A stretch of DNA of 57,973 bases from an uncultured Erysipelotrichaceae bacterium (lineage in GTDB: Bacteria > Bacillota_I > Bacilli_A > RFN20 > CAG-826): positions 1 to 57,973 of the forward strand of contig CADCPN010000031.1 of assembly GCA_902803375.1 (NCBI GenBank), in the 5' to 3' direction. Of the stretch, positions 52,944 to 57,973 are shown in pieces. The position numbers and the translations under genes are program-made. Position 1 is the first letter of the stretch; each line of letters opens with the position of its first letter. Below the pieces are notes generated by a model, which was not told the origin of the DNA, searched no databases, and was given only the letters and a program-made list of their open reading frames with translations.

Positions 52944-53042
52944 GGCGATAATTTAGCACAATTTATATGAATATTCCTTGTAGATTTCTAAAGGATCCTA
53001 TGGTACACTTGCACTCGCCTAAAAAGGGAGCGTGAGAAAACA

Positions 53043-53201
53043 ATGGCCAGCAAACGCGATGAAGTCATCCTAAAGTGCACGGAGTGCGGTAACGAGAACT
53101 ACATCACTACCCGCAATAAGAGAAACCATCCGAACAAGATGGAGATCAACAAATTCTGCCCGCACTGCAGAAAGATGACCCTTCACAAAGAGAAGAAATA
53201 A
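53043..53201 (+). CDS. rpmG: 50S ribosomal protein L33
   Basis: Not in the ORF track because it is only 52 aa. Translation: MASKRDEVILKCTECGNENYITTRNKRNHPNKMEINKFCPHCRKMTLHKEKK, with CxxC..CxxC. A terminator follows. Confidence 0.9.
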   Translation: MASKRDEVILKCTECGNENYITTRNKRNHPNKMEINKFCPHCRKMTLHKEKK

Positions 53202-53221
53202 GGCTTCGGCCTTATTTTTTT
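53200..53221 (+). terminator. Rho-independent terminator of rpmG
   Basis: AAGGC-TTCG-GCCTT, followed by a T-run. Confidence 0.6.
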
Positions 53222-53257
53222 CGCTTTTTTCTTCCGAAAACCCTTATCTTTTTATTT

Positions 53258-53902
53258 ATGTCTATCCCCGTTACCAAACTTATTTACGGCGGAGAATTCG
53301 CCAATACCTATATCCTTGGAGAAGAAGGGAAACCATGTCTAGTCATCGACCTAGGCTATAACCGCAACCACTGCGTCGAAAACTACGTCAAGCGCCACCA
53401 TTCTATCTGCGCTGGCATCCTGATCACCCATGGCCACTTCGATCATATCGCTGGGCTCAATGAGCTGGAAAAAGAGGTCATGGCCCCGATTTTCATGCCG
53501 AAAGATGACTTAGAATGCCTAAGGGACCCTAAGCGGAATGGCTCAGACGACCTCTGTGACGAAGAAGTGCTCATCGAGCAACGAATCCAGCCATATGGGG
53601 TAGAAGACGAAGACGAGATCGCGCTTGGGGGATTCAAAGTCAAGGTGATCGCCACCCCCTTCCATACGATCGGCTCGGTCTGCTATTACATCGAATCCCT
53701 TGGCATCCTCTTCTCTGGCGATACCTTGTTCCATTTAGGAATCGGAAGATATGACCTTCCTGGCGCTGCCCCAAGAATGAGAAGAAGCAGCCTTAGGAAA
53801 CTCGGCGATTTGCCTGACGATACCAAGGTTTATCCCGGGCACGGCCCATCCACGACCATCGGGGATGAGAAGCGCTTCAACGACGCCTTCCTTGACCTTT
53901 AA
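53258..53902 (+). CDS. MBL-fold metallo-hydrolase (glyoxalase II / YqgX-like)
   Basis: Metal motif ITHGHFDHIAG, a later GDTLF motif and a C-terminal PGHGP. Confidence 0.85.
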   Translation: MSIPVTKLIYGGEFANTYILGEEGKPCLVIDLGYNRNHCVENYVKRHHSICAGILITHGHFDHIAGLNELEKEVMAPIFMPKDDLECLRDPKRNGSDDLCDEEVLIEQRIQPYGVEDEDEIALGGFKVKVIATPFHTIGSVCYYIESLGILFSGDTLFHLGIGRYDLPGAAPRMRRSSLRKLGDLPDDTKVYPGHGPSTTIGDEKRFNDAFLDL

Positions 53903-53938
53903 CTTCGCTCTTTGAAGAGCCGAACGACTTGTATATAA
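53900..53938. repeat. direct repeat copy 1 (39 bp)
   Basis: TAACTTCGCTCTTTGAAGAGCCGAACGACTTGTATATAA. It starts with the TAA stop of the MBL hydrolase gene and contains the palindrome GCTCTT-TG-AAGAGC. Confidence 0.95.
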
Positions 53939-54089
53939 CCTGACTTAACGCCGGAACCCTAAAACAGAGCCAAAATTTTAATCAATCTCAAACAATATAG
54001 TGTTAAATCTTAAAAACGGGTATAAATTATAAAACTCGTTATTGCGACGCCAAAATTATATGGTGCTATTTGCCGAAGAGGGGGTTGAT

Positions 54090-54572
54090 ATGACTTTTAG
54101 AGTGGACTATAGAACATCTACAAGCAGCTCGTGGAAAAATAATATAGATTGGAATCCTGCTAAAGCTGAAGGATATTTCGCTAAACAGTGGTGGATTACT
54201 GGATTTAGCCCAACCTGCGCAAACAAGAAATTACCTAATTCCAGCTTTTTAAGGGCTACTTATACAGTTAAATGTATAACTAAGGGATATAGTAGTTCAT
54301 TTGATACGGCTTTGAAGAATAGTTTTCAATCTAAGTATGTGAATTCAATGAACCTGTGGACTTTTAATTCGAGAGTATCCGGAATCTTGTGTAGAACAGG
54401 ATTCGCGATACTCTCCGAGGAATCCCCGCATGTGACTGCTTCCCTTGGAAACGTCGAACGAAATGATTGGACCATCCATGGTTTCAATGGCTCCTTCCTG
54501 GATGTTTCCGCCTTAGGCTGGGTTCCCTTGCTTTCCGGCCACCCAATTTTTCATGGACGTGATTCGAAATGA
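54090..54572 (+). CDS. hypothetical ORF, probably a truncated or chimeric gene fragment
   Basis: The ATG at 54090 is preceded by GAAGAGGGGG. The first ~100 codons lie in DNA of about 35% GC, and the rest runs into DNA of about 50% GC. No recognisable domain. Confidence 0.3.
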   Translation: MTFRVDYRTSTSSSWKNNIDWNPAKAEGYFAKQWWITGFSPTCANKKLPNSSFLRATYTVKCITKGYSSSFDTALKNSFQSKYVNSMNLWTFNSRVSGILCRTGFAILSEESPHVTASLGNVERNDWTIHGFNGSFLDVSALGWVPLLSGHPIFHGRDSK

Positions 54573-54760
54573 CCTGCGGTCTTTCAATTAGGTGTAAGCT
54601 GTCTTTCGCCAAAAAGAGGGAATGCGGATTTTATTGTTCGATTTTATGCTCTAAAGTGGACTTTCCGTCATTCCCAAAGTCATCTTTTGCATGCCTGCGT
54701 AAGAAGACCAGGAGACCTCATCGGTCCCTGCCGCAGACGGCAACCCTATTGTAAGTCGCC

Positions 54761-54780
54761 GCATATCCCGCGGGATATGC
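54761..54780. repeat. perfect 20-bp palindrome
   Basis: GCATATCCCGCGGGATATGC is its own reverse complement. Confidence 0.9.
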
Positions 54781-54821
54781 CTATGGCAGTGACCAAGGAA
54801 TCATCCTGGTATTAATCATAT

Positions 54822-54849
54822 GAAACAAAGCCCCGCATTGCTGCGAGGC
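54822..54849 (-). terminator. Rho-independent terminator of the lipoprotein gene
   Basis: On the minus strand: GCCTCGC-AGCAAT-GCGGGGC, followed by TTTGTTTC. Confidence 0.55.
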
Positions 54850-54876
54850 TAAGTTTATAGGATGGGAAGTGATGAC

Positions 54877-57030
54877 TTACTTCTTGAAGTGGAGGGTGTT
54901 GTAGATCTTCACTCCATCTTCTCCGGCCGCGGAGAGGACAGCAAGTTTGAATTGCGTTTTGCTATTCCAGTTGCAGAGGGCGACTTCGACATCAATCGTC
55001 TTACCAACAAACGGTTCCAAGAACGCGTATTGGGAGATGCTCGAGGAATAAACTTGAATCGAGCTAGTGCCATCGGCCACAGAATAGGTCGGGTAGCTAC
55101 CGCTGCTCTTGGTAATCGTGCCTTGGAGGGCATATACGTTCAGCGTGACGGAGTCATTGGTTTTCTCGAACTTTTTCAAATCCGAAATGGTCTTGCCGGT
55201 GATGAAGGCCGAGGCCGGGAGTTCATGGCTGCCAAATTCATTGGCAACAAGTTTGGCATTGCTAAGGCATTGTTCACCAAAGTTATAGTCGGTTGCCGTC
55301 CAAAGATCACGGGTCGCATTAAGAATAATCTTTTGGCCCATTTTGACGTGAGCGAACCATTTCGCGGAGTCGTGGAGGGTAACGGCAATCGCTCCGTTTT
55401 CATCAAAGAGGTAGAAACCATCTTGGACGGTGAGAGACGGGCCGACGATACCTTCGACGGTAACTTCGGTATCGACCGCGGCTTTTTTGGCCGCGTCGAC
55501 GTTGATCGCGGTGATGTCGCCAAGGGCTTTGCGTTCAATGGCAATCTTCTTGGTCGCGAACTTAAATCCTTCTAAGGACGCGGAGATGGTAATGTTGGCC
55601 GTACCGGTTCCGCTGGTATGGAAGATGGTCTTGCCGTCTTTTTCTTCAAAGGAAGCTACCGTGTTATTGTCAGAAGCATAAGTGAGCTTCGCGCCTTCAA
55701 ATCCAAGAAGCGTGCTGGAGACGGTGGTCGTCATTTCTAACGCCGGGTCAGCAACGTAAGAGGTTTCGAATTGGTCAACGGCATAGTAGTCGATAGCAAA
55801 TTGAGCGGCATCGTTCTTATCGAAGGCGAAATGGTTGTCTTCGATTTTGACCGGGACAAAGCGCCAGGCGCAGCCATAAGTCGTGCTCTTGGCATTGAGG
55901 GCGGTCAAATAGACCGTGCAGATCTTGTTGACGAACGGATCGATCCAGGCAAAGTCAGAACCGCTATTTTGCGAATAGACGTAGTTACCAGTGACGCCAT
56001 CCAAGTCATTGAAGTAATAGTTGGTGAATCCGCCAGGTCCTTCCACGACGGATTTGGTGATGTAGGCATTGGCCTTATAAACCTTGGTCGAGATGTCTTC
56101 AGAGACCGGAGTTTCGACGATTTCCTTGACCGTCTTGGGCTGAGCGAAGGTCAAATCGATGGTGCCGTTACCCGCAGTCTTGTTCAAAAGGGTGACGTTT
56201 TCGATTTGATTGCAGCCTTTGTAACCATATTTGGCCGCGTTGGTTTGTTCTTTCCCCAAAACATAGTTGGTCTTTTCGCCGGCGATTTCAATCTTGTCGC
56301 CAACTTGGACGCGTCCCGCGACATCGGTAGAGAAGACATAGATGGAATCCGTGCCATCGCTGACCATGACGCCTTCGGCCGCGTTCTTTTGTCCGAAGAG
56401 GATGCTAAGAACTTGGAGGTTCTTCATGTGAACCTTGCTGCCGTTTGCGGAAGCGCGGGCCGCGGCGACGGTCGCATCCTTATATTGGGTTAAATCAATA
56501 TCCGGGGCATTGTGGGTGAAGGAAAGGATCCACGCGGAAACAAGCTCCATTTGGGAGTTCTTGTAGTTTTGGACGTTGCATTCGAGTTCGATGTCGTCTC
56601 CTGCGACGGGGCGTTCTTCTTCCGGAAGTTCGCTGTAGCGTTTTTCACCGGTCTTGTCATAGGTGCCATAGACATAGACTTCGCCGGTTTCGTCCTTAAT
56701 GGTCATTTCTCCATAAACAGGGTTGCTAACTTTGACGACTTTGGCCCGGACGCGATAACGTGTTTCGGATTTGGAGCCGTCTTCTGGAGCAAGGGCGATG
56801 ATTTCCGCGATTGTTTTGTATTCCGCGGGTTTTACGTCAGACGAGGTATTGGAGGAATCACTGGACGTCTTGTTGGACGTATCAGTAGAAACGGGGGTGT
56901 CTGGGGTAGACACAGGGAAAGAGGTGCTCTCTCCCGGCTTCGTGGAGGAATCATTCGGTTTGGTCGTGCCGCAGGAAGCGAGCGCGAGAAGCGAAGTGGC
57001 CAGCACGAAAAGCAGCGACTTGTTTTTCAT
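54877..57030 (-). CDS. large surface lipoprotein with about five OB-fold-like modules and one Ig-like (Big_2-type) module
   Basis: 717 aa. Signal peptide plus lipobox LALASC, then an S/T/P-rich stalk. The recurring pattern is a [beta-rich run]-DGT/DETG-xIxVY-...-GDxIE/VGxxIxV unit, for example YRVRAKVVKVSNPVYGEMTIKDETGEVYVYG..GDDIELECNV, GVMVSDGTDSIYVFS..VQVGDKIEIAG, VEGIVGPSLTVQDGFYLFDENGAIAVTL..MGQKIILNA and LQGTITKSSGSYPTYSVADGTSSIQVYS..VGKTIDVEVA. Confidence 0.75.
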   Translation of the reverse strand: MKNKSLLFVLATSLLALASCGTTKPNDSSTKPGESTSFPVSTPDTPVSTDTSNKTSSDSSNTSSDVKPAEYKTIAEIIALAPEDGSKSETRYRVRAKVVKVSNPVYGEMTIKDETGEVYVYGTYDKTGEKRYSELPEEERPVAGDDIELECNVQNYKNSQMELVSAWILSFTHNAPDIDLTQYKDATVAAARASANGSKVHMKNLQVLSILFGQKNAAEGVMVSDGTDSIYVFSTDVAGRVQVGDKIEIAGEKTNYVLGKEQTNAAKYGYKGCNQIENVTLLNKTAGNGTIDLTFAQPKTVKEIVETPVSEDISTKVYKANAYITKSVVEGPGGFTNYYFNDLDGVTGNYVYSQNSGSDFAWIDPFVNKICTVYLTALNAKSTTYGCAWRFVPVKIEDNHFAFDKNDAAQFAIDYYAVDQFETSYVADPALEMTTTVSSTLLGFEGAKLTYASDNNTVASFEEKDGKTIFHTSGTGTANITISASLEGFKFATKKIAIERKALGDITAINVDAAKKAAVDTEVTVEGIVGPSLTVQDGFYLFDENGAIAVTLHDSAKWFAHVKMGQKIILNATRDLWTATDYNFGEQCLSNAKLVANEFGSHELPASAFITGKTISDLKKFEKTNDSVTLNVYALQGTITKSSGSYPTYSVADGTSSIQVYSSSISQYAFLEPFVGKTIDVEVALCNWNSKTQFKLAVLSAAGEDGVKIYNTLHFKK

Positions 57031-57175
57031 CTTTCATTCCTTTCTAAAGCAGCAAAAAAGGGTGCTACTATCCCCCATGGACCATGGAGAATTCGTACCC
57101 TTCAGCTGCATTTTGATTTGATGAATGGTTTTGAACCAACCAAAATTGAAGCACGGAACGGCAAGAAAGCAAATA

Positions 57176-57200
57176 GTAAAATTGTAAAATCCCGTAAAAT
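57176..57200. repeat. three closely spaced GTAAAAT direct repeats upstream of the lipoprotein gene
   Basis: GTAAAAT occurs at 57176-57182, 57184-57190 and 57194-57200. Confidence 0.8.
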
Positions 57201-57369
57201 CGTGTTCTATTTCAGGTGATGTGAAACAAAATCGATAGCCAAGGAACATAACCCAGGGACGCAACCCCCGAGGGGGTTCGGCGGCGGCATATGAAAAAGG
57301 CATCCTGGCCTTTATAATGTTGTTTGTCAAAAACGCATTGGGAAAGGGGGGTGCCATGGGCATTATATC

Positions 57370-57909
57370 ACAAGAGAAGGCCAGGAATTACCTGCCTTTG
57401 GACGTTCAGACGAGGCTTTCGTGCTGCCAAAGGAGGGCAAACTCCGGCTGGAGCGTGAAGAAGATCTGCTCCTATTGCCGCGTCTGCAGGCAGTCGCTTT
57501 GGAGGCGGATGGCCAGGTTCGACGGGAGCGAGTTCTCTGACAAGGCCTTCAAAAGGCGAGGGGAGCCGATGCGGCCGCAGGTACCCCAACGCCTTGGAGC
57601 CGCTATTGGCCGCACATGGGCCGATCCCGATTCATAAGGCCGAGGACGCCTGAGCATAACGGGAAGGTCGAAAGAAGCCACGGGATCGACCAGGAGAAGT
57701 TCTACCGCAACCTGAGATTCTATTCTTTGGATGACCTCAGGAAGCAAGGGAAAGCCTGGATGGACCGATACCATTCGACCCCAAGGATGGCGCTCAGGCT
57801 GAGATCGCCCAACCAAGCGGAACTTGACAGCTTAAAACGGATTATGAAGAATACGGGCGAGGTCAGATGCCCGAGATTGCTAAAATGTCTCACATCAGCT
57901 GATAACTAA
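57370..57909 (+). pseudogene. 5'-truncated, frameshifted DDE (rve/integrase-core) transposase remnant, IS481/IS3-like
   Basis: FDGSEF (the DNGSEF-like box) lies in one frame at about 57510. LEPLLAAHG lies in a second frame at about 57594-57620. IRPRTPEHNGKVERSHGIDQEKFY plus the C-terminus lie in a third frame (57616-57909). No N-terminal HTH or first catalytic Asp region is present. Confidence 0.6.
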
Positions 57910-57930
57910 CAAATCCCAAAAACGGGCCTA

Positions 57931-57969
57931 TAACTTCGCTCTTTGAAGAGCCGAACGACTTGTATATAA
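57931..57969. repeat. direct repeat copy 2 (39 bp)
   Basis: Identical to 53900-53938. The window ends 4 nt later. Confidence 0.95.
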
Positions 57970-57973
57970 TACA

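Follow-up and report, generated by a model that had tools for sequence, protein, structure and literature searches.

Direct repeats around a 4-kb insert between an MBL-fold hydrolase gene and efp in an uncultured Erysipelotrichaceae bacterium: a probable long target-site duplication of an IS1634-family element

The DNA analysed here (the window) is contig CADCPN010000031.1 of an uncultured Erysipelotrichaceae bacterium (assembly GCA_902803375.1), which is 57,973 bp long. Near its right end, an MBL-fold hydrolase gene (hereafter MBL) is followed by an island of about 4 kb, and two direct copies of the 39-mer TAACTTCGCTCTTTGAAGAGCCGAACGACTTGTATATAA (53900-53938 and 57931-57969, with 0 mismatches between the copies) stand at the island borders. 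Copy 1 starts with the stop codon of MBL. A sequence-only reading made earlier had placed both copies at exactly these positions, and had explained them as attL/attR-like sites of a site-specific integration or as copies of a dispersed repeat. The present analysis points to another origin. The repeats are very probably (roughly 85%, in our estimate) a 43-bp target-site duplication (TSD) made by an insertion sequence (IS) with a DDE transposase of the IS1634 family, and the 39-mer would be the core of this duplication. This is an ordinary kind of event, and not a new integration system.

The insert between the repeats is 3,988 bp long (53939-57926). The features of the locus are listed in Table 1, in which the L-labels (L001 etc.) denote the contigs and loci that were fetched and compared with the window. 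The window sequence from 53000 to 57973 is 100% identical to L001, a metagenome contig of 122.7 kb, and at least five independent assemblies, from differing samples and differing assemblers, contain the island at 100% identity.

Table 1. Features at the MBL-efp locus and related loci (window coordinates unless a locus is named)
Feature	Position	Strand	Basis or remark
MBL-fold hydrolase gene, 214 aa	53258..53902	+	Pfam Lactamase_B, 81 bits
Putative target-site duplication copy 1, 43 bp (39-mer 53900-53938)	53896..53938	+	IS terminus begins at next base
Internally deleted IS1634-family element, 82 bp	53939..54020	-	BLAST against intact L001 IS: 92% over 50 nt, 22/26 at other end
Parts of the 82-bp relic	53939-53964; 53965-53969; 53970-54020		IRR end; CAGAG scar of a nested element; IRL-proximal 51 nt ending AAATCTTAAAAACGGG
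AT-rich block	54021..54370		GC about 0.36-0.40; no family in Pfam/NCBIfam
Hairpin-rich non-coding segment, 452 bp	54371..54822		Fold z-scores
Lipoprotein gene cassette, 2,380 bp	54823..57202	-	Homology to L116, L117, L122, L114, L115
Internally deleted IS481-family element, 709 bp	57203..57910	+	Both terminal inverted repeats kept
16-nt stub of second IRL terminus, AAATCCCAAAAACGGG	57911..57926	-	Abuts 43-bp copy 2
Putative target-site duplication copy 2, 43 bp (39-mer 57931-57969)	57927..57969	+	Runs on into native efp leader
Promoter-like site before efp (TTGAAG, 16 nt, TATAAT)	57943..57970	+	Consensus scan, L004 5090-5117
Target of second, strain-polymorphic insertion	57888..57973 (one more base beyond window)	+	87-bp TSD in L001, L091; empty in L004
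Home-locus homologues of the cassette	L116 7829-10205; L117 7836-10184; L122 5829-8208
dnaX-prfA case	L118 2351-2395 and 4331-4429; L119 1-87; L120		Pieced from three assemblies

The uninterrupted state of the locus is found in related species. The MBL protein gave only distant relatives (identity of at most 64%) in the JGI metagenomes and no relative in the species-representative genomes, for which the ispG protein was taken as the query instead. This search gave 80 species-level genomes of uncultured Bacilli (top identity 81%), including MAGs (metagenome-assembled genomes) of 'Candidatus Enteromonas', Alloenteromonas and Fiminaster from gut and rumen; the exact species of the window is outside this collection. 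Both MBL and efp are present in 69 of the 80 loci. In 66 of the 69, the order ispG-rpmG-MBL-efp is kept and the two genes are adjacent, with a median gap of 76 nt between the matches. No homologue of any island gene was found near MBL-efp among these loci. In a sister species (MBL 79% identical, DNA about 77%), efp starts 131 nt after MBL with no insert. Its spacer holds a single copy, in which TTGTATATAATACAAAGGTC is contiguous and CCGCTCTT...TTGTATATAATACAAAGGTCGTTTTTGACA is homologous to copy 2 and its right flank. Because MBL-efp is uninterrupted in these relatives, the 39-mer is best read as the native MBL-efp spacer, and 53939-57926 as inserted DNA. The proposal that about 4 kb, bordered by the repeats, had been inserted into a conserved backbone right after MBL is borne out by this gene order.

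The repeat reaches 4 nt further to the left than the 39-mer, which gives 43 nt with one mismatch (CCTT in copy 1, CCTA in copy 2; 42/43). In L110, a strain about 98% identical, the MBL-adjacent copy reads CCTA, as does copy 2 of the window. The change from CTA to CTT in the last MBL codon of the window, which is synonymous, would therefore postdate the duplication, and the original would be 43 bp. Copy 1 thus takes in the last 4 coding nt and the stop codon of MBL. On the other side of the island, copy 2 is followed in L004 by TACAAAGGTC and then by efp, and the same junction is present in the insert-free sister species. The promoter-like site before efp is intact in copy 2 only, where the 39-mer stops just before the final T of the -10 hexamer. 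In copy 1 the -35 hexamer TTGAAG (53912-53917) is present, but the -10 hexamer is spoiled to TATAAC (53934-53939), since the IS end follows directly. A motif containing TATAAT recurs in the MBL-efp spacers of related species, and a promoter role of the duplicated sequence upstream of efp is suggested by these hexamers.

Both borders of the insert are termini of IS1634-family elements, which lie directly against the repeat copies. The end near the transposase stop codon, CCTGGCTTTAGG, is termed IRR (right inverted repeat), and the end upstream of the start codon, AAATCCTAAAAACGGG, is termed IRL (left inverted repeat). Copy 1 is immediately followed by CCTGACTTAACGCCGGAACCCTAAAA (53939-53964), which matches the IRR end motif. 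At the other border, the 16-nt stub matches the reverse complement of CCCGTTTTTGGGATTT at 16/16 positions; this is the 5' terminus of a P0005-type IS, a variant whose transposase is 87% identical to that of the intact IS described below. The two border termini have the same relative orientation as those of the intact copy. The IRR and IRL end motifs have no other occurrence in the 58-kb window, and the motif of the IRL stub recurs only at 54005. The weaker similarity between 54005 and 57911, which the sequence-only reading had also pointed out, accordingly represents two copies of the IRL terminus, AAATCCYAAAAACGGG. The two IRL termini differ (CTT versus CCC), and therefore at least two IS1634-type copies would have contributed to the island. 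No remnant of an IS1634-type transposase was found inside the island by tblastn. A candidate third IS terminus at 57184-57202 (13/19) was rejected, because this stretch belongs to the native DNA upstream of the lipoprotein gene and is kept in L116, L117 and L122. A separate observation was made in L111 (1745-1808), a strain with an MBL 97% identical. Its 39-mer has a 1-nt deletion and is followed, at the same position, by a clearly different IS end variant, CCTGTCTTAAGGTTGGGACCCCAA, which suggests that the end was replaced or that an independent insertion struck this point.

An intact IS of this type is located next to the island in L001 (14718-16639; 1,922 bp), 5 bases past copy 2 of the 39-mer, and also in L091. 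Its single open reading frame (ORF) encodes a 576-aa protein with a strong match to the NCBIfam model NF033559 (IS1634-family transposase; 304.5 bits, cut-off 100, E=1.6e-90); the match to Pfam DDE_Tnp_1 is weak (17.7 bits versus a cut-off of 23). The terminal inverted repeats are imperfect (CCCGTTTTTAGG... versus CCTGGCTTTAGG..., 16/23 by eye), and the termini fit the family consensus C-----YT when the sequence is read against the table in PMC2266710. The layout is duplication, CCTGGCTTTAGG...(1,922 bp)...AAAAACGGG, duplication. The duplication is a perfect, abutting direct repeat of 87 bp that includes the 39-mer, so that L001 and L091 have three copies of the 39-mer. L004 is otherwise identical and has no IS; the 87-bp target is present once, and efp starts about 50 nt onward. 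L001 and L091 against L004 thus form a filled/empty pair, which indicates that the intact IS makes long TSDs at the MBL-efp locus. The insertion appears to be recent and polymorphic, since it is found in some assemblies of the same strain and not in L004, and the polymorphism also argues for transposition activity of the IS.

A mechanism for the 43-bp duplication can be proposed on this basis. The IS1634-family DDE transposase would join the element ends to the two strands of the MBL-efp spacer at points 43 bp apart. Repair of the gaps would copy the intervening target and leave one copy on each side of the insert. In MBL, the copied target would cover the final 4 coding nt and the stop codon; in the putative efp promoter, it would cover the -35 hexamer and all but the last base of the -10 hexamer. 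Such a widely staggered target attack, with its cut-and-repair step, is our deduction from the product, and the long duplications may persist because efp keeps an intact promoter. The sequence-only reading had dismissed a TSD on the ground that IS3/IS481-type elements make short duplications; this reasoning does not apply here, since the border element is an IS1634-family IS and not the IS481 relic.

Several points weigh against the origin as a TSD of an IS1634-family element. The origin of the borders is deduced from a left terminus that survives as the 82-bp relic and a right terminus that is a 16-nt stub. A possible 5-bp TATAA repeat can be read at the borders of the 82-bp relic itself, so that some of the events may have been other than those proposed here. 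In the IS1634 family, a TSD is typically AT-rich and 5-6 bp long (PMC2266710). No empty site of the island was found at the strain level; the empty state is known only from a species about 77% identical in its DNA, and the pattern of MBL end, one 39-mer and TACAA gave no match in the JGI metagenomes. The proposed check for an empty site was thus successful for the sister species, but not for closer strains. Moreover, most metagenomic IS contigs were unusable for TSD lengths; the short contigs L095-L102 are chimeric across the repeat, with left and right flanks from different sites.

Long duplications are known from other members of the family. An IS1634-family element measures 1,500-2,000 bp and has a single ORF, and its terminal inverted repeats are imperfect and follow the consensus C-----YT (PMC2266710). 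Typical members such as ISGka5 (Geobacillus kaustophilus) make AT-rich duplications of 5-6 bp (PMC2266710; PMC8024623), while IS1634 (Mycoplasma mycoides subsp. mycoides SC) and IS1549 (Mycobacterium smegmatis) have long and variable direct repeats of 8-514 bp, for which no mechanism was proposed (PMC2266710). The element described here resembles IS1634 and IS1549 as a single-ORF DDE element of 1.5-2 kb with long, variable direct repeats (43, 87 and at least 99 bp, the last from a second case described below). It shares the transposase family with the ISGka5-type members, but its duplications are 43-99 bp instead of 5-6 bp. Unlike IS1634 and IS1549, it resides in uncultured gut and rumen Bacilli near 'Candidatus Enteromonas' and is known here from sequence alone; the window holds relics only (82 bp and 16 nt) and no intact element. 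The profile match, the size and termini, the duplication with its empty site and the borders, which are all the family tests run here, agree with the IS1634 family, and the element behaves in the manner of its two long-duplication members, IS1634 and IS1549.

The contents of the insert had been described as an AT-rich block, hairpin-rich DNA, a minus-strand gene for a 717-aa lipoprotein and a transposase remnant, and the first three were confirmed by GC content, fold z-scores and the coding sequence (54877-57030). The lipoprotein has a lipobox LASC and weak OB-fold matches. It falls into a large family from gut Firmicutes, whose members contain an OB-fold and are about 700-850 aa long. The 90%-identity cluster of the lipoprotein has 290 members, versus 4 for the neighbouring MBL protein. 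The cassette also holds a terminator-like hairpin and 172 nt of upstream DNA. The exact span 54823-57202 is 89-90% identical to L116, L117 and L122, and 77% identical to L114 and L115. In these home loci, the gene is directly downstream of a Na/Ca exchanger gene (Na_Ca_ex); on the other side, it is followed by GH16 and sugar-transporter genes or by a phosphoglucomutase gene. The lipoprotein gene of the island can be regarded as a relocated or acquired copy, because the gene has a conserved home elsewhere, beside the Na/Ca-exchanger gene of related lineages.

The left end of the IS481 relic meets the lipoprotein cassette to the base. Its inverted repeats (57203-57228 and 57886-57911) are of the TGT...ACA type and match at 20/26 positions. 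Two transposase fragments are recognised, HTH_23 (57317-57637; 23.3 bits, just below the cut-off of 24.6) and rve_3 (57616-57909; 38.7 bits, cut-off 26.5), and NF033577 is matched partially (model positions 218-282). The fragments can be assigned to the IS481 family; the relic lacks about 150 codons of the catalytic core and, because of this deletion, is predicted to be non-functional. The remnant of an rve-type transposase, as described from the sequence, calls for a correction: it is not C-terminal only, as both inverted repeats and an HTH_23 part are present in a 709-bp relic, and one frame change is seen between the fragments, where at least two frameshifts had been proposed.

Two routes to the present insert can be considered. 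In the stepwise route, a plain IS would make the duplication, and an IS481-family element would then insert into this IS, 16 nt from one end. Homologous exchange through both kinds of IS would afterwards bring in the lipoprotein cassette together with the AT-rich block and the structured segment. In the other route, the whole 3,988-bp segment would have moved in one step as a composite transposon that used the outermost IRR and IRL, with later decay of both IS copies. The 43-bp duplication would stem from this one event, and the route departs from the TSD explanation above just in the sequence of steps. As in known composite transposons, IS ends in direct orientation (IRR...IRL, cargo, ...IRL) bracket a cargo gene within one flanking duplication, and the differing IRL termini imply that two IS copies were involved. 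Unlike in such transposons, the IS copies are cut to 82 bp and 16 nt, no second site was found, and the cargo border is an IS481-family end. This border points to joining mediated by IS481 instead of IS1634; moreover, no second IRR survives. The contigs encoding the exact lipoprotein share one context, MBL-efp, and it was never seen elsewhere with IS ends. Homologues about 90% identical lie in a different, IS-free locus. The one-step composite is quite possible, though we stop short of calling it probable. The stepwise route is slightly favoured, because the cassette border is an IS481 end; the two are otherwise about equally possible. No strain with an intermediate stage of island assembly was found. 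In either case the insert has no transposase of its own, in line with the suggestion that the element is decayed and dependent on an enzyme in trans; it could be moved only by the enzyme of full-length copies, one of which adjoins it in some assemblies.

A dispersed repeat is very unlikely as the source of the 39-mer. The 39-mer might be a REP-like (repetitive extragenic palindromic) element or a segmental duplication, with the island produced by homologous recombination between its copies, and several Logan contigs do end within the 39-mer, as is seen at repeats. But these breaks, like the end of the window itself (4 nt past copy 2 and one base before the further IS copy in identical assemblies), are accounted for by the local duplication and are expected there. 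The two copies in 58 kb and the three in L001 are all at the MBL-efp locus, and the sister species has a single-copy homologue. A search of the 57,973-bp window that tolerated 3 mismatches gave no further copy, nor did 100 shuffled sequences give any. In the window and L001, the 39-mer thus does not show the scatter over unrelated sites that had been named as grounds for giving up the insertion.

A site-specific integration by a tyrosine or serine recombinase, with the repeats as attL and attR and the palindrome as the core site, is slightly less likely still. As in integrase-borne islands, an exact direct repeat includes the 3' end of a conserved gene and encloses foreign-looking content, and the 39-mer has the internal palindrome GCTCTT-TG-AAGAGC. 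But no integrase was found: the absence noted earlier holds for the scanned ORFs, as the scan, which covered the larger island ORFs and those short ORFs that lie in 54326-54754 and 57034-57363, gave no recombinase domain. The neighbours of the island are MBL and efp, with no recombinase gene, and no tRNA or tmRNA is present. Both inner borders are IS termini, which is not a property of integrase-borne islands. The repeat length also varies between events: the neighbouring insertion duplicates 87 bp, shifted 5 bp downstream, versus 43 bp for the island, and a fixed att core is therefore not supported. Moreover, the 39-mer is the native spacer of the locus, and its palindrome overlaps the -35 hexamer of the promoter-like site. 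As for an assembly artefact, a chimeric join at a shared k-mer would fit the end of the window shortly after copy 2 and the demonstrably chimeric short metagenomic contigs that cross the IS, but it is hardly credible, because L001-L004 (different samples; MEGAHIT-type and scaffold-type pipelines) carry the identical island with both copies, L091 and L094 cover parts of it identically, and the diverged L110 has the same left junction.

The left part of the insert differs in L110. The CAGAG scar (53965-53969) is all that the window has at the position where L110 carries a 751-bp nested element (L110 9400-10150) between the two parts of the relic. This element has 26-nt terminal inverted repeats (CTCTGTTTTACATGT...) and a 170-aa ORF with a weak match to an IS1/IS1595-type zinc-binding domain. 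L110 also lacks window 54001-54370, i.e. the AT-rich block and the IRL terminus. The GC content of the window is 0.36-0.40 at 53850-54449, versus about 0.50 around it. Another 170-aa ORF, at 54060-54572 in the window, draws its N-terminal two thirds from the AT-rich block, and the rest lies in the structured segment; it is probably not a gene, because it is not conserved in L110.

Within the hairpin-rich segment, 54480-54822 gave a fold z-score of -5.05 for the minus strand and of -3.0 for the plus strand. No Rfam match was obtained over the window at gathering thresholds, or over the island at E<=1. A BLAST search of 53939-54822 against plasmids and phages gave no match, and 54371-54822 has no other copy in any fetched locus. 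A putative start of an IS110-type transposase at 54345-54479 (minus strand; suggested by a resemblance of 'FDVSKGSSH'), with the hairpin DNA as its leader, was rejected as unsupported, for Pfam found nothing and 1.84 billion representative proteins gave two weak matches only. The 452-bp segment could represent a structured RNA that has yet to be described, or one end of a mobile element of unknown type.

Further observations concern the spacer and the MBL gene. Upstream of efp, the -10 box is embedded in a near-palindromic motif (TTGGTATATAATACCAA in relatives, CTTGTATATAATACAAAG at window 57958-57973) that is kept across species, as seen in the spacers of the window, L013, L016, L018, L035 and L112. 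Both IS insertions strike inside this motif or at its edge. The motif might serve as an operator in addition to being a promoter element. The MBL-efp spacer was also considered as a general IS hot spot, which was rejected, as three other large-gap species hold ordinary genes there. These species (L012, 7356-9017; L031; L069, 4383-8928) have either an M6-metalloprotease-like gene or a metal ABC transporter operon of the znuA type with an iron-dependent repressor, and none of the DNA between MBL and efp is IS-related. For the MBL protein, a precomputed annotation gives Pfam PF23023 (Anti-Pycsar_Apyc1), while the Pfam scan here gave general MBL-fold families only. A housekeeping role of the hydrolase seems more plausible than one in phage counter-defence, because the gene is syntenic in most relatives.

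A second case of a long duplication was found in the same clade. A relative of the IS with 71% transposase identity sits between dnaX and prfA, and its flanking repeat is at least 99 nt long and takes in the ribosome-binding site and start codon of prfA; the L118 scaffold of this case has an N-gap and a collapsed left copy. The IS1634-family elements of this gut clade have more than 8,000 detectable homologues in metagenomes. It is tempting to suppose that the clade makes TSDs of 40-100 bp as a rule and that the duplications let the elements sit harmlessly before the efp and prfA signals, but this is doubtful at present. If TSDs of 40-100 bp prove usual, the mechanism of long duplication could be studied in this clade with plentiful natural data and a tractable element.

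These results add new natural IS1634-family duplications of 43, 87 and at least 99 bp, one of them with a clean filled/empty pair. They also call for caution in annotation, as site-specific integration cannot be concluded just from long direct repeats that flank an island. In both the efp and the prfA cases, the duplication leaves the downstream gene its own promoter or start region, which may be a reason why the insertions are tolerated. In this lineage of uncultured gut Bacilli, a surface lipoprotein gene appears to have been relocated by IS activity.

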